Notes: generated by a model from the sequence alone, not told the origin. A DNA stretch of 64,000 nt from Brevibacterium luteolum (GCF_013004595.1 NZ_JABEMC010000003.1:1-64000); one strand, 5' to 3'. Positions 105 to 9,315 are shown, counted from the stretch's first letter. A program made the numbers and translations.

Positions 105-1346
105 TCAGCGGTGGCCGTAGCGCAGACCGTAGTAGTTCAGCGCATCCTGCACCGGCTGGAAGTAGGAGGAGCCTCCCATGTATCCGCCGTTGAAGCCGCA
201 GCGCTGGTTCGACGGTCCGCCGGAGGTCATTCCGACTGCGTATCCGCCGGCGGTGTAAGCGCCGCCGGAGTCACCGGGAGCGGTGCACACCGAGGAGGTG
301 CCGAGACCGGAGACCTGGGCCACCGAGCGGCCCTGGTTGTCGGAGTAGTTGACCGAGGCGTTGTAGCCGGTGACTTTGCCGCAGGTGACACCCGAGGTTG
401 CGCCGGTGCGGCACATGTCGGTGCCGACCGGAGCCTGCCAGGCCCCGCGATCGGCGTTGGTGATGCCGAAGTCCGAGCCGTAGGTGTTGACGCTCGTGCT
501 CACCGAGTTGCCGGCGTTGACGTAGATCGCTCCGATGTCGCGGTCGGGCTTGCCGTCGTAGGACTTGAAGGCGGTGGCTGCGAAGGTGCCGAAGGTGCTG
601 CCGCCGACGGAGAAGTTCTGCTGACCTTCGACGCAGTGACCGGCCCAGATCATGACCTTGGTGCCGGCGGTGGTCGAGGCCGGGAAACCAGCCGAGCAGT
701 AGCTGCCGGGCACGGAGACCTTGTCGCCGCCGCGGGCGGTGGTGTGCAGGATATTGCGCTCGCCTTCGACGACGGTGACGGCGTCACCGTACTCGGCGGC
801 CTTGTCGAGCACAGCGGACTTCGCATCGGCGTCGGAGACGGTAATGACGACGCGGTCGTCGATGATCTCCGGGGCGATCGAGGCGATGGCCGAACGGTCT
901 CCATCGACCGAGTTGAGGGCATCAACGATCTCGTTGAGCTTGCTCTCGCCGTGCTGCGGGTCGCGGACCTCCAGACCCTTCGCCTCAGCGGCCTTGGCCT
1001 CTGTCGAACCGGCGGCTGCCTGGACAACGAGCCCATTGTCCTCATTGAAGAATGCGCCGTCGAAGTCGTTGCCCTTCTGCGAGAGCTCGTAGAGTTCGTT
1101 GTTCTGCTCGGCCTGGGCCTCGACGTACTCGCGCTGTTCGCTGAGAGTGCGGCCTGAGGACTCGGCCATGATCTTCAGCTCTTTGTCGCTGAAGACCGGG
1201 TTGACCTTCTGCGCCTCCGGGCTTTCCTGGATGGCGGTGTCTGCCGTCTTGAGCGGTGCCGGGCCGGCTGCCGCGGGCAGTGCAGTTCCCACGCCGGTGA
1301 AGGCGAGTGCTCCAATCAGCACAGCGTGGACCAAGTGTCGTTTCAC
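105..1346 (-). CDS. Secreted S1-family (alpha-lytic/streptogrisin-like) serine protease with signal peptide and pro-domain
   Basis: GTG start at 1346 after an AGAGGAGAG RBS; signal peptide KRHLVHAVLIGALAFTGVGTALPAAA; triad motifs WAGHC, DRDIG, GDSGG; CRTGATSGVTCG typical of streptogrisins. Confidence 0.93.
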   Translation of the reverse strand: MKRHLVHAVLIGALAFTGVGTALPAAAGPAPLKTADTAIQESPEAQKVNPVFSDKELKIMAESSGRTLSEQREYVEAQAEQNNELYELSQKGNDFDGAFFNEDNGLVVQAAAGSTEAKAAEAKGLEVRDPQHGESKLNEIVDALNSVDGDRSAIASIAPEIIDDRVVITVSDADAKSAVLDKAAEYGDAVTVVEGERNILHTTARGGDKVSVPGSYCSAGFPASTTAGTKVMIWAGHCVEGQQNFSVGGSTFGTFAATAFKSYDGKPDRDIGAIYVNAGNSVSTSVNTYGSDFGITNADRGAWQAPVGTDMCRTGATSGVTCGKVTGYNASVNYSDNQGRSVAQVSGLGTSSVCTAPGDSGGAYTAGGYAVGMTSGGPSNQRCGFNGGYMGGSSYFQPVQDALNYYGLRYGHR

Positions 1347-1564
1347 TGTTCTCTCCTCTGAGATGACCAATTTGGTGCGTCTAACCTTTGCAACACCCAA
1401 GGTGCCGCGCTATTGGACCTTGGTGCCGTGAGCTAAGCCGAAAGGGGTAGCTATGCGCGGGTCGGAATGCCTTTTGGGTTCAGCTGAGAGGGAGCGTATG
1501 TTGCAGCTTTGCTCAGAATCCGCCGTTTCCACACAGGGCGCGGTCATCATGTTCGGTCTATGAG

Positions 1565-1582
1565 ATACGACGAAAGTCGTAT
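1565..1582. promoter_or_regulatory. Perfect inverted repeat ATACGAC-gaaa-GTCGTAT, candidate NarL-family response regulator operator
   Basis: 7-4-7 palindrome centred about 44 nt upstream of ATG 1618; its core matches the CGAC-N4-GTCG pattern of corynebacterial ChrA boxes; a -10-like CATGAT lies at 1605-1610. Confidence 0.7.
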
Positions 1583-1617
1583 TGGCTCAGGTCACGCGAA
1601 CGGGCATGATAGGGGTC

Positions 1618-1782
1618 ATGAAGAAATCACTCGGCCTGACGCTCGCGGCAGCTGTCATGCTGTCGTTCGGCACTGTTGCTCCTGCTGCGGCTGTGCAGGC
1701 AAAGCCCTCACCTGATTACCCGAATATCTGCCTGGTGTGGAAAGTCAAGATGCTCTGCTCGAACGTGAAGCCGAACGGTTAA
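1618..1782 (+). CDS. Small secreted peptide (54 aa; Sec signal plus about 29-aa mature part with C-x8-C), putative signalling peptide
   Basis: MKKSLGLTLAAAVMLSFGTVAPAAA|VQAKPSPDYPNICLVWKVKMLCSNVKPNG: classic n/h/c signal regions, AxA cleavage site, GC3-biased codons, ATG 7 nt after a -10-like hexamer. Confidence 0.75.
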   Translation: MKKSLGLTLAAAVMLSFGTVAPAAAVQAKPSPDYPNICLVWKVKMLCSNVKPNG

Positions 1783-1883
1783 CGCCGAAGAGTCTTCTTC
1801 GTCGTGCGCCTGCTAGTCACACGGCCGGTGCGCGGCTTTCCGAGTGTCCGAAGATGGCCGTAGCGAAGTAGTACCATCAACGA

Positions 1884-3188
1884 ATGGCTGACGTACGGGA
1901 GAACCTGCCCTTGATTCGTCGCTTGAGTTCGCGCACCCAACTCGGGCAATTCGGTGTCCCTGTTCTGCTGGCGCTCCTGCTCGTGGGGCTGGGGATCATG
2001 GATGCGACCCAGGTTGAGGCCGCTGAGTTCCCGTTCATCCCGCTTTCCCTGCTTGGCATCGGCATGCTGACGATCCCATTTTCACCGTGGATCATGGTGG
2101 CCACTGTGGGTTTTGCAGGTGCCTACCTCATCGTCACGGACACAACGTTCCTGGGAATCGCCAGCCTGCTTCTGCCGGTCGTCGTTGCCTATTTCGTCGC
2201 TCGCGGTCTCGTCAAACACGCATTCGCGCTCGGCATCGTGTTCCTTGTGGCCGTCATGGCCCCAGGAGTCCGCAGTTACGACGCCTCAGTTTTTGTGTCC
2301 TCGTTGGTGTTCTGGACCATCATTCTCGTTTTGGCTCTCGGTGCTGGTGGATTTATTCGGTTCCTGCTTCGGCGCGAGGAAGCAGCCGTCGAACAGAACC
2401 AGAAGGCGCTTGATGAGCTCAGCGACCAGCTTTCGCGTGACCTCCATGACTCGGTCGGGGGAGTGCTGACGCGCGTTTCTCTGCTAGCCCAGCAGGCGCG
2501 CGCGAGTGGTGGGGACAAGGCGGCTGAGAATCTCGATCTCATCGTCGCCGAAACCCATGCCGCCAGCAGTGAAGTCCGTCTGCTGCTTCGGCGTCTCCGA
2601 GACGTCGACGACATGATCCGCGGCGACGGCGCAGCCGAGCCTGGGTCTGACGTCCCGCGTCCGGCCAAGAAGCCTTCGGCAGCTGCACGCGCCAGCGATC
2701 CTGTCATCGCGCATGGCCCCATGACGGTTCGCCAGCTGTTGCGGTCCTACTCCGACCGGCTGCGGGTCTACGGCTTCGCTGTCGAGAGCGCTGTCGAACC
2801 GCAGGCGTCCGAAGCCCTGGAGCAGTACGTGCGGCTGCTCGGCCGACTGCTGGACGAGAGCATCCTGAATACGATCAAGTACGCCTCGCCGGATGAGCCG
2901 GTGCACGCGGTCTTCACGCGGTCGGAAACGCACGTCAAAGTCGTGCTCAGCAACACCGAATCTCCCGAGGGCAATCCGAACCCTGCCGACAGCTCGGGTC
3001 TGGGCTTGGCAAATTTGGCCCGCGATATTGAGGCTGCAGGGGGTATCCTGACTACTGGCCGGTTGACACCGCCGGTCGTCGAAGGCGCTGAGGCCACGGA
3101 ATCGCAGTGGCAGCTCTGCGTCGAACTCCCCGCAGCACCAGCCGGGCAGCCCACGCCCCACACGGAGGTACCGAGTGACAATCGTTGA
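1884..3188 (+). CDS. Membrane sensor histidine kinase (HisKA_3/NarX-like)
   Basis: About 5 N-terminal hydrophobic segments; H-box SRDLHDSVG; N-box ESILNTIKYA; G-box SSGLGLANL. Confidence 0.92.
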   Translation: MADVRENLPLIRRLSSRTQLGQFGVPVLLALLLVGLGIMDATQVEAAEFPFIPLSLLGIGMLTIPFSPWIMVATVGFAGAYLIVTDTTFLGIASLLLPVVVAYFVARGLVKHAFALGIVFLVAVMAPGVRSYDASVFVSSLVFWTIILVLALGAGGFIRFLLRREEAAVEQNQKALDELSDQLSRDLHDSVGGVLTRVSLLAQQARASGGDKAAENLDLIVAETHAASSEVRLLLRRLRDVDDMIRGDGAAEPGSDVPRPAKKPSAAARASDPVIAHGPMTVRQLLRSYSDRLRVYGFAVESAVEPQASEALEQYVRLLGRLLDESILNTIKYASPDEPVHAVFTRSETHVKVVLSNTESPEGNPNPADSSGLGLANLARDIEAAGGILTTGRLTPPVVEGAEATESQWQLCVELPAAPAGQPTPHTEVPSDNR

Positions 3189-3882
3189 GCCCTACGACCG
3201 CATCAGGGTCATCGTCACCGATGACGATGCTTTCACTCGAGACGCCATCGCCGAACTGCTCGGCAACGACGCCGCCATCAGCGTTGACTCCACATTCTCT
3301 GACGGAGCAGAGATGCTCGCCGCCGTCGAACCGCTCGGCCGCGAAGCTGTCAAGAACATCGATGTCATCCTCTGCGACATCTCGATGCCCGAGGTCGGCG
3401 GCATCGAGGCGACCCGCCGCCTGCGTGCCGCCGGCGTACGCGTGCCGATCATCCTGCTGACGTCCTTCGACAGCGAAGAGAACCTCATCCAGGCGCTTGC
3501 CGCAGGTGCCAACGGCTACCTCATCAAGACTGCCGATGTCGTGCAGATCCGCTCGGCGATCGACGCCGTGCTCAGCGGCACCGCCGTCATCTCCCCGGAC
3601 GCCGCAGGCTTCGGCGCCACCATCACCCACGAGCCGGCAGCCTCTGCCAACCCGGCAGAGGAGATGGCCCAGCTCGGCCTGACCGACCGTGAGGAGGGCG
3701 TGCTCTACCTGCTCTGCCAGGGACTGTCGAACCACGAGATCGCACGCAAACTCGACATCCGCGAAGGCACCGTGAAGGTTCACGTCACCTCGATCATGCG
3801 CAAGTTCAACGTCCGGTCCCGGCTCGAACTCGTCGTCGAGGCTTTCAACTCGGGAATCGTCTCACCCGAAGGGGTGCACTGA
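3175..3882 (+). CDS. NarL/LuxR-family DNA-binding response regulator
   Basis: Receiver motifs VTDDD, LCDISMP, LLTSF, GYLIK; LuxR HTH LTDREEGVL...GLSNHEIARKL...TVKVHV; overlaps the kinase stop. Confidence 0.95.
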   Translation: MTIVEPYDRIRVIVTDDDAFTRDAIAELLGNDAAISVDSTFSDGAEMLAAVEPLGREAVKNIDVILCDISMPEVGGIEATRRLRAAGVRVPIILLTSFDSEENLIQALAAGANGYLIKTADVVQIRSAIDAVLSGTAVISPDAAGFGATITHEPAASANPAEEMAQLGLTDREEGVLYLLCQGLSNHEIARKLDIREGTVKVHVTSIMRKFNVRSRLELVVEAFNSGIVSPEGVH

Positions 3883-4020: not shown

Positions 4021-5925
4021 ATGACAGAACACACCGCACGCCGCCTCGATCGCCGCAATATCGCGATCGTCGCCCACGTTGACCACGGCAAGACGACCCT
4101 GGTCGATGCGATGCTCAAACAGACCGGAGCGTTCGGCGACCACGGTGAAGTGCAGGACCGCGTCATGGACTCCGGTGACCTGGAGCGCGAGAAGGGCATC
4201 ACGATCCTGGCGAAGAACACCGCCGTGCGCTATTCAGGACCGTCGGCCACCGACGGCCCGCTGACCATCAACGTCATCGACACCCCCGGCCACGCCGACT
4301 TCGGCGGTGAGGTCGAACGCGGCCTGTCCATGGTCGACGGTGTCGTGCTGCTAGTCGACGCCTCGGAAGGACCGCTGCCGCAGACCCGGTTCGTGCTGCG
4401 CAAGGCGCTGGCGGCGAACCTGCCCGTCATCATCGTCATCAACAAGACCGACCGCGCCGATGCCCGCATCGCCGAAGTCGTCGACGAAGCCCAGGACCTG
4501 CTGCTGGGCCTGGCCAGCGACCTGGCAGAAGAACAGCCTGACCTCGACGTCGACGCCGTGCTCGACGTGCCCGTCGTCTACGCAGCCGCCAAGGTCGCCC
4601 GCGCCTCCCTGCGCCGGCCCGCCGACGGCGATGTGCCGGACAACGACGATCTCGAACCGCTGTTCGCCACCATCCTGGAGCACATCCCGGCACCCGCCTA
4701 TAACGACGACGGAGTGCTGCAGGCACACGTCACCAACCTCGACGCCTCGCCGTTCCTCGGCCGCCTGGCACTGCTGCGCATCTACGGCGGCACCCTGAAG
4801 AAGGGTCAGCAGGTCGCCTGGGCCCGCGGCAGCGGCGACATCGGCCAGGCCAAGATCACCGAGCTGCTCGAGACCAAGGGTCTCCAGCGCGTCCCGGCCG
4901 AGGAGGCCTCAGCGGGTGACATCGTCGCCATTGCCGGCATTCCCGACATCATGATCGGCGACACCATCACCGATCTGGAGGATCCGCGCCCGATGCCGGC
5001 GATCGAGATCGACGAACCGGCGATCTCGATGACCGTCGGCATCAACACTTCGCCGCTGGCTGGCCGCGAGAAGGGCACCAAAGTCACCGCCCGTATGGTC
5101 AAGGACCGACTCGACTCCGAACTCGTCGGCAACGTCTCCCTGCGCGTGCTGCCCACCGAGCGCCCCGACACCTGGGAAGTCCAGGGCCGAGGCGAACTCG
5201 CCTTGGCCGTTCTGGTCGAGCAGATGCGCCGCGAGGGCTTCGAGCTCACCGTCGGCAAGCCGCAGGTCGTGACTCAGGAGATCGACGGCGTCCTGCACGA
5301 ACCGGTCGAGCAGATGACGATCGACGCGCCCGAGGAGCACCTGGGGGCGATCACCCAGCTCATGGCCTCCCGCAAGGGCCAGATGGAATCGATCAGCAAC
5401 CACGGCACCGGCTGGGTGCGCATGGAATTCCGGGTCCCGGCCCGCGGCCTCATCGGCTTCCGCACCCGGTTCCTCACCGAGACCCGCGGCACCGGCATCG
5501 CCAACTCGCTGTCAGCCGGCCTCATGCCGTGGGCGGGGGAGATCACCTTCCGCACCACCGGCTCGCTGGTCGCCGACCGGGCCGGTTCGGTGACCCCGTA
5601 CGCAATGCTCAACCTGCAGGATCGCGGCAGCTTCTTCGTCGAGCCGACCTCCGAGGTCTACGAAGGCCAGGTCGTCGGTGAGAACTCCCGCAATGAGGAC
5701 ATGGACGTCAACGTCACCAAGGAGAAGAAGCTGACGAACATGCGCTCAGCTTCGGCGGACACCTTTGAGAACCTCACCCCGCCGCGGGCACTGACCCTGG
5801 AGGAGAGCCTCGAGTTCGCCAACGACGACGAGTGCGTCGAAGTCACGCCAACCCACGTGCGCATCCGCAAGGTCGTGCTCGACCAGAAGGAGCGTCACAA
5901 GATCACCAGCCGCAAGAAGAACTGA
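4021..5925 (+). CDS. typA: Translational GTPase TypA/BipA
   Basis: [45 protein letters not shown]-terminal [12 protein letters not shown] motifs. Confidence 0.97.
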
Positions 5926-5932
5926 TCACTGC

Positions 5933-7447
5933 ATGAGTGCCACCCAGACCCTTCCCGCAGCACAGGCGCGCGTCCTCTTCGTCCACGCCCACCCCGATGA
6001 CGAGTCGATCATGACCGGTGGGACGATGGCCGCACTTGCCGCCTCCGGCGCCCACGTCGCCCTCGTCACCGCCACCCGCGGTGAGGGCGGTGAGGTGATC
6101 GGCGAGCTGCGGGAACGGCTGGAGGGCAACCGGGCCGAACTAGCATCTCACCGGGAGCAGGAGCTCGCCCGCGCACTCGAGATCCTCGGGGTCAGCGACC
6201 ATGCCTTCCTGGGCGACGGTGAGCGCGGGGGAGCAGATGAGCGTCTGCCTTCCCGCCGGTTCGAGGACTCCGGGATGGCCTGGGGTCCTGACGGTCACGC
6301 TGTGGCACCGGATGACATGGTGCCCGAGGCGCTGTGCGCCGCCCCGGTGAGCGAAGCCGCCGGATACCTCGTCAACGTCATCCGCCGGGTGCGTCCGCAG
6401 CTCGTCATCACCTACTCCAGTGGTGGCGGCTACGGCCACCCCGACCATGTGCGGATGCACGAGGCGACGGTCGCCGCCTGCCAGCGGCTGGAGGGCACCG
6501 CTGACGAGGCGGCTGCACTGCTGTTCTTCGACACCCCTGCCGACGCGGCCGCCGACGCCTTCGACCCGCAGGCTCCCGGCTTCGAGCTCACCGGCTTCGC
6601 CCCGGCCGAATCGATCCCGACGATCGCCGCCGAGGCGCCGATCGCCGTCGCCCAGGACGTCGACGCCTTCATCGGCGCCAAGAGCCTGGCGATGGCAGCC
6701 CACCGCACCCAGATCACCGTGGCCGGGCAGTTCTTCGCACTGTCCAACGGGATCGGCCAGAAGGTCATGGATATCGAGTGCTACACCGACGCCGCCTACC
6801 CGGGCCCCGGACCGGCACCGTATGCACCGGTCGACAATGTCCTCGATGCCGTCATCGTGCCTGTTGAGACTCACGCCTACCCGACCCCGGCCGGCACCGG
6901 CACTGACGATGCGCACGCAGCCGCCGCCTCGGGCGCGGGTGGAGCAGCCGGTGCGGCGAGCACCGCCGGAACCGGAGCGGCGAGAGCTGCCGGAGCCAGA
7001 CCGGCGAGAGCTGCCGGAGCCGGAGCGGCGAGAGCTGACACTGAGTCTCCGGGGCGTCCGAAGACCAGCGCGGCAGCGATCATCCACGCGATCCTCGTCG
7101 GGCTGCTCATCGGCGTGCTCGGCTCCTTCCAGCACCTCAACGCGACCGCCTGGGAGCTCGGCGGCCAGCAGATCATCGCCCCGTGGGGCTTGGCGCTTGC
7201 GCTTGCGCTGAGCACAGCGGGCATGTGGCACATCGCCGCACTGTACCGGTCGACATCGCTCATGGTGCTGTGCGCGGCGATCATCTGCATGGTGTCGTTC
7301 CTCTTCACACAGCAGGGCCTGCTGCCCGGCGCCGACCTCATCGTCGCAGCCTATCTGCGCTCGATCGTCTGGCTCGTCGCACCGATGGGCATCGCCGCTG
7401 TGCTCGCGTTCACGCTGCCCTCGCTCAAGGCTCCCAAGCGGTCGTGA
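5933..7447 (+). CDS. mshB: Mycothiol GlcNAc-Ins deacetylase MshB (PIG-L family) fused to a C-terminal 4-TM membrane domain
   Basis: VHAHPDDES, TRGEGGE, DSGM, GGYGHPDH, AMAAHRTQI, FALSNG; position after typA; hydrophobic C-terminal ~125 aa. Confidence 0.85.
   Translation: MSATQTLPAAQARVLFVHAHPDDESIMTGGTMAALAASGAHVALVTATRGEGGEVIGELRERLEGNRAELASHREQELARALEILGVSDHAFLGDGERGGADERLPSRRFEDSGMAWGPDGHAVAPDDMVPEALCAAPVSEAAGYLVNVIRRVRPQLVITYSSGGGYGHPDHVRMHEATVAACQRLEGTADEAAALLFFDTPADAAADAFDPQAPGFELTGFAPAESIPTIAAEAPIAVAQDVDAFIGAKSLAMAAHRTQITVAGQFFALSNGIGQKVMDIECYTDAAYPGPGPAPYAPVDNVLDAVIVPVETHAYPTPAGTGTDDAHAAAASGAGGAAGAASTAGTGAARAAGARPARAAGAGAARADTESPGRPKTSAAAIIHAILVGLLIGVLGSFQHLNATAWELGGQQIIAPWGLALALALSTAGMWHIAALYRSTSLMVLCAAIICMVSFLFTQQGLLPGADLIVAAYLRSIVWLVAPMGIAAVLAFTLPSLKAPKRS
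6965..7036 (+). repeat. In-frame tandem repeat, 3 x 24 bp, in the MshB linker
   Basis: GCCGGAACCGGAGCGGCGAGAGCT / GCCGGAGCCAGACCGGCGAGAGCT / GCCGGAGCCGGAGCGGCGAGAGCT. Confidence 0.9.
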
Positions 7448-7596
7448 CACCGGCGGCCCGGCCGGCAGCCGAGCCCGAACTGTAGCAGGATTGTCACCCG
7501 GCAGTCGCAGGTGAGCGCAGTGCCACTGGCTATAGTTGGGAACGAACTCCCACCCGCTCCGGGCTGCTGCCCGGCCGACATTCGCGAAGTGACTTC

Positions 7597-9315
7597 ATGG
7601 CCTCTGACTCCACTTCGGCGCGCGGCCGCCGTACGACGACCATCGTCATCGTCGCCGCCGTCCTCGCCCTCGCCGCCGCCTATGTGGCAACGGCGTTCTT
7701 CGCCTCCAACGGCATGCCGCGTCACGCGCAGGTCGCCGGGATCGATATCGGCGGGCTGTCCAAGGCCGAGGCGAAGCAGACCCTCGAGGAGCAGCTCGCC
7801 CCGCGTGCCGAGGAGCCGATCGAGATCACCGCAGAGGACAATTCCGCGAAGATCGACCCGGCAGACGCCGGGATCGCCCTCGACACCCAGGCGACTGTCG
7901 ATCGCGGCGCCGGCTTCACCCTCAATCCGGTGCGCATCTACGAGCGCCTGTTCGACGCCAACGTCATCGACCCGGTCATCACTGTCGACGAGTCGAAGAA
8001 GTCCGTCATCGAGGAGGTCGGTGCGGAAATGTCGACCGAACCGGTCGATGCGACGCTCGCCTACGGCGAAGACGGCAAGCCGAAGGTCACCGACAGCAGC
8101 GACGGCACCATCGTGACCGCCGATGCGATGCGGGAGACGATCGATGCGTCCTGGCTGCGCGAAGACCCGCCACTGGCGGTGACTGCGCAGAAGAAGGAAG
8201 CCGACATCACCACCGCCGAGGCGGAGAAGGCCCGGACCGATATCGCCGAACCGGCCATCAGCAACGACATCACGGTCACCGCCGACCCCGGCGACCATGA
8301 GGATGTCCAGGGCGGGACGCTCACCGTCTCACCGGAGACCGTGTCGCAGACCCTGGCGTTCGAGCCCAAGGACAGCGACCTGACACCGGTCTTCGACGCC
8401 AAACGGCTCAAGCGGCTCGCGCTGGCCGAGAGCCCGCAAGTCGGCCAGGAGATGAAGAACGCCAGCTACGAGATCGTCGACGGCAAACCGAAGGTCGTGC
8501 CGAGTGAGAAGGGCATCTCCGTTGACGAGAAGGAATTCGCCGACGCTGTGCTGCCGGCGCTGACCTCCGATGACCGCACCGCCGAGGTGACGCTCACCGA
8601 GACCGATCCGGAGTTCTCGACTGAGGACGCCGAGAAGGCCGATATCGACACCGTCATCGCGAAGTTCGCCACCCCGTACAACTCCGAACCCAACCGCGAC
8701 ACCAACCTGCGGGTGGCCTCGAAGAAGGTCTCGGGCAGCGTACTGCTGCCCGGTGAGCAGTTCAGCCTCAACGAAACCCTGGGCAAGCGCACAGCCGCCA
8801 ACGGCTACAAGCCTGCCGGCGTCATCTCCGAAGGACAGATGAAGACCGACTTCGGCGGCGGTGTCTCCCAGGTGTCGACAACCCTGTTCAATGCCGCATT
8901 CTTCGCCGGTCTCGATCTCGATGAGCACCGTGCGCACTCCCGGTACATCTCCCGCTACCCGGAGGGTCGGGAGACGACCCTGGACTGGACGTCGATCGAC
9001 TTGAAGTTCACGAACAACACCGACAAACCGATGGTGCTTGACATGTACCTCAAGGGCGGCGAGGTCCACGCCCGCGTCTTCGGCGTCAAGACCGTCGACG
9101 TCGAAGCGGATGCCTCCAGCCGGTTCGCGTTCACTTCGCCGAGCACTGTGACCGAATCGGGCCCCTCCTGCTCACCGCAGTCACCGCGGGAAGGCTGGTC
9201 GATCACGATCTACCGCACGATCAAGGACCACTCGACCGGCAAGGTCGTGAAGAAGGACGACTTCACCACCGTCTACCGTCCGGTCAACCGTGTGCAGTGC
9301 AAGACGGACAGCTGA
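7597..9315 (+). CDS. Membrane-anchored VanW-domain protein with putative peptidoglycan-binding repeats
   Basis: N-terminal TM; RDTNLRVA, PGEQFSLNETLG, GGGVSQVSTTLFNAAFFAGL, HSRYISRYPEGRE, DLKFTNNT. Confidence 0.88.
   Translation: MASDSTSARGRRTTTIVIVAAVLALAAAYVATAFFASNGMPRHAQVAGIDIGGLSKAEAKQTLEEQLAPRAEEPIEITAEDNSAKIDPADAGIALDTQATVDRGAGFTLNPVRIYERLFDANVIDPVITVDESKKSVIEEVGAEMSTEPVDATLAYGEDGKPKVTDSSDGTIVTADAMRETIDASWLREDPPLAVTAQKKEADITTAEAEKARTDIAEPAISNDITVTADPGDHEDVQGGTLTVSPETVSQTLAFEPKDSDLTPVFDAKRLKRLALAESPQVGQEMKNASYEIVDGKPKVVPSEKGISVDEKEFADAVLPALTSDDRTAEVTLTETDPEFSTEDAEKADIDTVIAKFATPYNSEPNRDTNLRVASKKVSGSVLLPGEQFSLNETLGKRTAANGYKPAGVISEGQMKTDFGGGVSQVSTTLFNAAFFAGLDLDEHRAHSRYISRYPEGRETTLDWTSIDLKFTNNTDKPMVLDMYLKGGEVHARVFGVKTVDVEADASSRFAFTSPSTVTESGPSCSPQSPREGWSITIYRTIKDHSTGKVVKKDDFTTVYRPVNRVQCKTDS

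Follow-up and report, generated by a model that had tools for sequence, protein, structure and literature searches.

Does a small secreted peptide that is encoded beside a sensor kinase in Brevibacterium luteolum serve as the signal for that kinase? The question is raised by positions 105-3882 of NZ_JABEMC010000003.1:1-64000, the first 64,000 nucleotides of contig C15; this whole stretch is called the window below. The original prediction for this locus held that a two-Cys peptide is the ligand of the kinase, induces its own gene, and switches on a divergent secreted protease. We found all four genes in the layout that had been described, namely a 54-residue peptide precursor (1618-1782, plus strand), a 434-residue HisKA_3 sensor kinase (1884-3188, plus strand), a 235-residue NarL/LuxR-type response regulator that overlaps the kinase stop codon (3175-3882, plus strand), and a 413-residue S1 serine protease (105-1346, minus strand). 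From comparative sequence analysis, we consider it probable that the peptide is a Sec-exported, disulfide-closed, diffusible autoinducer that acts on the kinase in a ComX/ComP-like but enzyme-free manner, stimulates its own gene by positive feedback, and has outputs that include secreted peptidases. It is the comparative part of the ligand claim that stood, and it did so through the linkage of peptide and kinase genes, the co-variation of peptide loop and sensor, and a palindrome at the peptide promoter.

In comparisons of the peptide open reading frame (ORF) with those of three relatives, the first, second, and third codon positions showed 9/7/20, 3/3/11, and 9/7/19 base changes, and synonymous codons outnumbered non-synonymous ones in every comparison (14/11, 9/4, and 16/10). 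The dominance of third-position and synonymous changes indicates that the ORF is coding and did not arise by chance; judged by this pattern, it is a true gene under purifying selection. The precursor begins with a basic N-terminus and a hydrophobic stretch ending in P22-A-A-A25. After a spacer of ~12 residues follows the loop C38-LVWKVKML-C47 (C-x8-C; 1729-1758, plus strand), predicted to be the disulfide-closed active core, and a tail of seven residues. Residues 1-25 form the predicted signal peptide, with the cut after P-A-A-A; the features of the "clean Sec signal" that had been claimed are present, motif heuristics being their only basis.

The kinase carries a HisKA_3 domain (PF07730, E-value 3.9e-08) with H188 as the H-box His. 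Its predicted model (mean predicted local distance difference test score 80.9, predicted template modelling score 0.58) points to some six helices crossing the membrane (residues 19-160), joined by short loops, and to the absence of any large extracellular domain. The catalytic core is DesK/VraS-like; compared with solved structures, it matched DesK (E-value 3.3e-22), and a structure-similarity search that covered residues 175-424 put DesK level with VraS (Z 14.7, with a root-mean-square deviation of 2.6 for 124 residues). The sensor part matched no Pfam family, and its Atlas matches were limited to unnamed clusters or to DUF7134, the latter with a share of 20%. The regulator joins a receiver domain with D68 to a GerE helix-turn-helix (Response_reg and GerE), and its best NCBIfam model was NarL, below cut-off. 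The closest named relatives of the kinase, at 85-90% identity, are those of B. gallinarum, B. otitidis, and Brevibacterium sp. p3-SID960. Another kinase, P0006, has an overall identity of 74%, its catalytic part being almost unchanged and its sensor highly divergent; by this comparison it is probably another pherotype.

A two-Cys signal-peptide ORF was called at 68 of the 95 loci of this kinase subfamily and at 0/38 control HisKA_3 loci, a few of which had short flanks. The controls were generic kinases obtained with a broad kinase profile (A5) from 401 genomes of the class. One uniform caller was used throughout (a signal and C-x4..14-C in an ORF at most 1.5 kb from the kinase), which gave 69 raw calls with one rejected by eye. 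Among the rows dropped on inspection were the call at L157 and one of the two made at L228. By group, calls were made at 8/8 Brevibacterium loci, 9/21 of genus g27, 1/1 of g44, 26/34 of the Mobiluncus family, 0/1 of f14, and 24/30 of the Enemella family. The objection raised together with the original prediction, that homologous kinase loci might lack an upstream peptide ORF, does not hold in general. Within Brevibacteriaceae, the orthologous kinase was found in 8/72 genomes, with the peptide gene upstream in all eight loci. One group among these, with 40% kinase identity and at another chromosomal site, has the loops CYSRPIMGIC or CYMGRPIIGIC, and a further allele of the cassette occurs on a metagenome contig. 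Later groups were reached by iterated profile searches. In family f24, of the same taxonomic order as Brevibacterium, the peptide ORF is divergent from a related kinase; in the Mobiluncus family it lies upstream, or downstream of the regulator, and the Enemella family has the same kind of ORF. We take the latter two to be Actinomycetaceae and Propionibacteriaceae, respectively. At L186 and L251, the peptide gene is convergent and directly past the kinase, a fourth gene order. The peptide-kinase pairing is kept in all four orders (upstream, divergent, downstream of the regulator, and convergent), indicating that the linkage survives rearrangement.

Since kinases with a linked peptide had served to train the profile, a fair test has to rest on 28 loci found afterward, outside the profile, each the best locus of one of 28 further genomes (32/121 genomes matched). 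A peptide was called at 22/28, two more were recognized by hand (long-tailed or displaced), and two looked truncated. When 125 kinases were placed on a quick maximum-likelihood tree, the controls, 35 in number, fell into a single clade (Shimodaira-Hasegawa-like approximate likelihood ratio test, SH-aLRT, 99) apart from all peptide-linked kinases, among which deep branching was poorly supported. Kinases with <330 aligned residues and L014, L028, and L071 were left out of the tree and of the co-variation analysis, which kept 125 rows. With a refined profile, 250 other genomes across the class, with seven candidates scored per genome, gave no match below E 1e-55; as no close member appeared in this sample, the family is patchy in its genomic distribution. 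A Corynebacterium-labelled kinase cluster also exists. The original prediction knew of no such system in Micrococcales; the cassette is real there, and its range goes beyond this order. Likewise, the absence of a modification enzyme and of a dedicated exporter was confirmed in the window region, and no modifying enzyme, exporter, immunity, or transporter gene recurred as a neighbor when 20 wide loci were examined visually. The conserved unit is therefore three genes: peptide, kinase, and regulator.

The 68 called precursors are 40-99 residues long and share a basic, hydrophobic N-terminus, a variable spacer, and a C-terminal loop. Most have a short Ala/Gly-rich hydrophobic region followed by Pro and A-x-A, the latter being present after the hydrophobic stretch in 46/68, usually with Pro; the mean best 19-residue hydropathy, a heuristic value, is 1.9. 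Between signal and loop lie 10-57 poorly conserved residues. The loops are of the form C-x5..13-C, 8 or 9 residues long in 51/68, and 56 of them are distinct. Pro, Trp, Leu, and Phe abound in them, with W/F/Y in 54 and Pro in 45 of the distinct loops; the two Cys are nearly invariant, and Trp is frequent, not invariant. The window-type loop is variable between close relatives. Pfam and NCBIfam searches with 30 peptides matched no family at a meaningful score and no autoinducer model, and the MgrB model was absent among matches at E ≤ 0.1. A search of the PDB with the peptide profile gave weak matches on the signal part only (best E 0.076). Atlas matches of the peptide, including a PagK-named cluster, were rejected, the best score of 0.82 being in the chance range. 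In several Mobiluncus precursors (L151-L156 and L160-L162), a conserved third Cys stands in a lipobox-like motif, which suggests a lipid-anchored version of the peptide.

Comparison of close kinases showed that the loop changes together with the sensor. Among 24 pairs with a cytoplasmic identity of ≥0.85, which come from seven clusters and are hence non-independent, the 10 same-loop pairs had sensor identities of 0.89-1.00; 13 of the 14 different-loop pairs had sensor identities of 0.66-0.81, with the cytoplasmic part at 0.87-0.98. Across 22 disjoint pairs, loop correlated with sensor given the cytoplasmic part (rho 0.72; 0.64 given also the pro-region), and the correlation of loop with cytoplasmic part given the sensor was -0.08. 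The co-diversification of peptide and sensor that had been proposed as a check was therefore found statistically, with the pro-region control positive too. In 23 loci, the regulator gene and the cytoplasmic part lie between sensor and peptide; the partial r was 0.45 (0/499 permutations; pairs not independent), and this persistence with the regulator gene intervening argues against simple linkage. Sensors of a clade without the peptide evolve more slowly (0.45 versus 0.33 at a cytoplasmic identity near 0.5).

The third line of evidence is an imperfect palindrome, TACGAC-GAAA-GTCGTA (1566-1581, no strand specified), the predicted site of the regulator. It ends directly 5' of the -35-like hexamer of the predicted peptide-gene promoter (TTGGCT, 17 nt, CATGAT; 1582-1610, plus strand; read by eye from conservation), with the same spacing within one base at 8/8 Brevibacterium loci, a position predicted for a class-II activator site of the regulator. 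The -35/-10-like pair lies 7 nt before the ATG, so the peptide mRNA is likely leaderless. Among 72 Brevibacteriaceae genomes, the 16-nt pattern occurs in eight, exactly those with the kinase, at a chance expectation of ~0.004 per genome, and the reversed pattern, used as a control, gave no match in the 72. There are 15 sites, eight at peptide promoters and seven away from the cassette, the latter in four close genomes and at three orthologous places; two of these additional sites, at C15:131420 and C1:408141, are exact. One of these places is upstream of a 153-residue membrane protein with the promoter spacing of the peptide gene. Another is 93 bp upstream of a 980-residue LPxTG-anchored TAP-like peptidase, with an aminotransferase on the other side. 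The last is between the ends of two convergent genes (G000:C20:78899, L274), being doubled in G027 and partial in the window's own genome; it points into a short region without an obvious protein gene and is possibly the promoter of a small RNA or an antisense transcript. Another site, with two mismatches to the pattern and an identical promoter spacing, was observed ~320 bp upstream of a ~430-residue secreted protein (G000:C12:37862, L276), which had no Pfam match, adjoins a transposase-like ORF, and is a candidate regulon member. In the Mobiluncus family, related motifs of the CTACTTT(C/T)G type stand upstream of many peptide genes.

Downstream of the peptide stop codon, a hairpin (1801-1836, plus strand) likely marks the end of the peptide transcript; three close relatives have a hairpin there too, of differing sequence, and none was found in the 40%-identity group. 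The conserved -10-like hexamer TACCAT (1872-1877, plus strand), 6 nt upstream of the kinase ATG, likely belongs to a leaderless promoter from which kinase and regulator are transcribed separately. A consensus promoter and terminator scan returned 0 promoters, with the peptide promoter below threshold, and detected neither this hairpin nor the terminator-like repeat at the contig start; conservation is the sole basis of the promoter assignments given here.

Taken together, these observations suggest the following mechanism. The 54-residue precursor would be exported via Sec and cut by signal peptidase, and its two Cys would be oxidized by the general envelope disulfide machinery to give a short hydrophobic loop. 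In actinobacteria, this machinery consists of thiol-disulfide oxidoreductases. The spacer might then be trimmed by secreted peptidases. The likely binding partner of the loop is the membrane sensor of the neighboring kinase. Once phosphorylated, the regulator would act through the palindrome to activate the peptide gene and a small number of others. The effect would be activation, not inhibition, giving positive feedback on the peptide gene. The outputs would include secreted peptidases: the wall-anchored TAP-like peptidase with its conserved site and, by position only, the S1 proteases.

Several observations weigh against this interpretation. Eight of the 15 palindrome hits are circular, the pattern having been built from peptide promoters; the genomes with extra sites are four close kin, and another regulator could bind those sites. 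With regard to co-variation, the loop effect reached only p 0.067 in nine disjoint pairs with the downstream arrangement, and one pair with two loop residues changed had a sensor identity of 0.93. The signal/pro-region tracks the sensor too (rho 0.55 in the 22 disjoint pairs; r 0.49 in the 23 loci), so that a common evolutionary rate, or linkage, accounts for part of the co-variation. The selection of pairs for maximal cytoplasmic identity is another bias, since it favors homogenized cytoplasmic parts, and control kinases likewise have fast-evolving sensors. Any binding partner, an inhibitor included, would co-vary with the sensor; co-variation and autoregulation, as read from the genomes, are compatible with inhibition no less than with activation. 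A-x-A is missing in 22/68 precursors, and 3/68, from Mobiluncus, have a lipobox-like motif and look tethered. Finally, 12/21 kinase loci of genus g27 have no peptide, and wider stretches around 11 of these 12 (up to ~5 kb per side, less at contig ends) contained none. Nine of the peptide-less loci form one nested, old clade with intact kinases, which suggests a peptide-independent input or eavesdropping; by gene content, this is a clade that lost the peptide and kept the kinase. The idea of an orphan peptide elsewhere in the g27 genomes was not supported, all nine strong profile hits in 55 genomes being training loci.

These points bear on what else the peptide might be. It might be a regulator-induced envelope peptide, retained at or close to the cell that makes it, which binds the kinase and damps or tunes it; the kinase would have another primary input. 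MgrB is the parallel: this product of a regulator-induced small gene acts on its cognate kinase PhoQ and has a link to disulfide formation (PMC11825808). The cassette peptide, in this view, would possibly report the disulfide-forming state of the envelope. The circuit logic is the same, such a modulator would account equally well for the loop-sensor co-variation and for the palindrome at the promoter, and the clade that keeps the kinase without the peptide, the lipobox-type Mobiluncus precursors, and the precursors lacking A-x-A are all as expected of it. However, 46/68 precursors do have A-x-A, and spacers of up to 57 residues are unlike an anchored peptide. Moreover, near-identical relatives differ in the loop along with sensor blocks, as is typical of pherotypes, a pattern of paired peptide and sensor change established for agr and comQXP; the candidate outputs are secreted peptidases, and the modelled kinase offers no extracellular domain for another ligand. 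We therefore regard such a local modulator as unlikely, if still a serious contender. Alternatively, the peptide could be an output only, that is, a Sec-exported antimicrobial or surface peptide under two-component control and no ligand at all. The promoter palindrome is consistent with this, the two-Cys peptides are small, hydrophobic, and often cationic, and the N-terminus of the window peptide matched the bacteriocin-type model NF053514, weakly and non-significantly (E 0.16). Against this, no immunity or transporter gene recurs, the linkage is kept through four gene orders, and the loop tracks the sensor and neither the cytoplasmic part nor the regulator, which a mere output would not need. 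A pure output is, in our judgment, very improbable.

The remaining alternative concerns the S1 protease: cleavage by it, or by a host protease, might make or destroy the ligand, and the circuit would then gauge extracellular proteolysis rather than cell density. The ORF at 105-1346, with its likely start at a GTG at 1346, was undetected as a protease by Pfam and matched 23 PDB sequences as an alpha-lytic/streptogrisin-type S1 protease (best 2sfa, E 6.8e-20). It comprises a signal, a pro-domain, and a catalytic domain with the motifs AGHC, DIG, and GDSGG and an intact triad (H237, D270, and S360). Its start is 220 bp from the palindrome, with no second copy of the palindrome there. An S1 protease adjoins the cassette in 8/8 Brevibacterium loci; in Brevibacterium sp. 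p3-SID960 (L002:3150-3580) the adjacent copy is a decayed remnant, with the peptide, the palindrome, and the tandem second copy intact. The family also occurs in 3/22 f24 loci, downstream of the regulator, and this neighborhood, in a different gene order, suggests a functional tie to the cassette. These neighborhoods, the palindrome at the peptidase gene, and the long, removable spacers would suit a protease reporter. However, no S1 protease was found beside Mobiluncus- or Enemella-family loci within the flanks examined, and the window spacer is only ~12 residues long; we give scant credence to this alternative. The idea of the S1 protease as an obligatory maturase was rejected for the same absence, and as it accompanies only Brevibacterium and the three f24 loci, it is not a required maturation enzyme. 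It is a frequent neighbor and no core part of the cassette, and by its position a candidate output.

Other features of the locus are as follows. The contig starts with a terminator-like inverted repeat 3' of the protease (1-31, no strand specified). Contig C3 ends in the other arm of this repeat and carries a second protease gene (C3:62737-63972, 65% identical), so the two protease genes lie in tandem, as in relatives. Beyond the regulator, the neighbors at 4021-9315 are ordinary, namely typA/bipA (by Pfam) and two further ORFs, which we take to be PIG-L/MshB-like and VanW-like. A plasmid search gave no match. The 24 RNA data sets all consist of contigs, and four of them were compared with the locus. 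In one, a tick metatranscriptome (X4), contigs of a related strain span protease, peptide, and kinase; they give no level or strand and were not taken as expression. At L049-L069 in genus g27, most cassettes adjoin a fur-like regulator and a catalase, which may reflect an insertion site or a redox link. At L183, L224, L236, and L280, the peptide gene has an internal stop, is truncated, or is displaced by 4.7 kb beside an apparently intact kinase, resembling signal-loss alleles. Two distant Mobiluncus-family kinases, L182 (minus strand) and L188 (plus strand), are followed after the regulator by leaderless ORFs of ~20-26 codons without a signal peptide, rich in Trp/Tyr/Phe and, by eye, two in tandem in L182; they are possibly a sister system.

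According to two papers, Actinomycetota typically signal with small molecules made by enzymes, gamma-butyrolactones being an example, and oligopeptides encoded by genes are the mode of Bacillota (PMC10075063, PMC13454427). A 2016 review likewise treats signaling in Actinomycetota as chiefly a matter of small molecules; in it, Brevibacterium appears with bioinformatic evidence only, and "cyclic or modified peptides" are mentioned in general terms (PMC4748050). No description of the cassette was found in the open-access literature. On balance, we lean toward peptide quorum sensing without enzymes as a widespread, so far undescribed class in Actinomycetota, with Sec-exported aromatic disulfide loops, dozens of pherotypes, a dedicated HisKA_3 subfamily in Brevibacterium and the Mobiluncus and Enemella families, control of secreted peptidases, and signal-less "listener" lineages. 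If so, the gap in peptide signals of this phylum would be filled by a peptide-kinase family with 56 distinct loops that spans four families, of which several are host-associated. It would offer many natural ligand-receptor pairs, for which synthetic peptides of 10-30 residues need only oxidation. Even as a modulator, the peptides would be an undescribed family acting on kinases.

How does the cassette compare with known systems? In its cytoplasmic part, the kinase is closest among solved structures to the intramembrane-sensing HisKA_3 kinases of the DesK/DesR and LiaS/VraS type; the likeness is confined to that part, and control kinases of this broad type have no peptide gene (0/38). MgrB has two cysteines in its exposed part, as a membrane protein that binds a periplasmic sensor domain, whereas the cassette kinase is modelled without an extracellular domain, most precursors look cleavable, and the loops are hypervariable. 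The agr and fsr systems combine a small cyclic hydrophobic peptide, a polytopic kinase, and pherotype variation, and the output of fsr includes secreted proteases. The cassette shares the first three, the cyclic nature of its peptide being predicted. However, agr and fsr use AgrB and a single-Cys thiolactone core with an HPK10 kinase and a LytTR regulator, whereas the cassette has a predicted disulfide ring with 5-13 residues between two Cys, a HisKA_3 kinase, and a Response_reg/GerE regulator; no AgrB-like peptidase was found in the window region or as a neighbor in the 20 wide loci. In peptide systems as outlined in PMC10075063, a genetically encoded propeptide adjoins a membrane-bound sensor and an intracellular regulator. 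The same three components make up the cassette. ComX/ComP/ComA is alike in its propeptide gene, its polytopic HisKA_3-type kinase with a NarL-type regulator, and its strain-variable block of peptide and sensor. The cassette differs from ComQXPA in its N-terminal Sec-type signal, invariant two-Cys loop, variable gene order, occurrence in Actinomycetota and not Bacillota, and lack of ComQ, no ComQ-like prenyltransferase being present in the window region or recurring, by eye, in the 20 wide loci. ComQXPA systems also have a modified Trp in the peptide, a residue that many but not all of the cassette loops contain. The cassette falls outside both ComQXPA, for want of ComQ, and agr/fsr, and likely works in the way of ComX/ComP/ComA.

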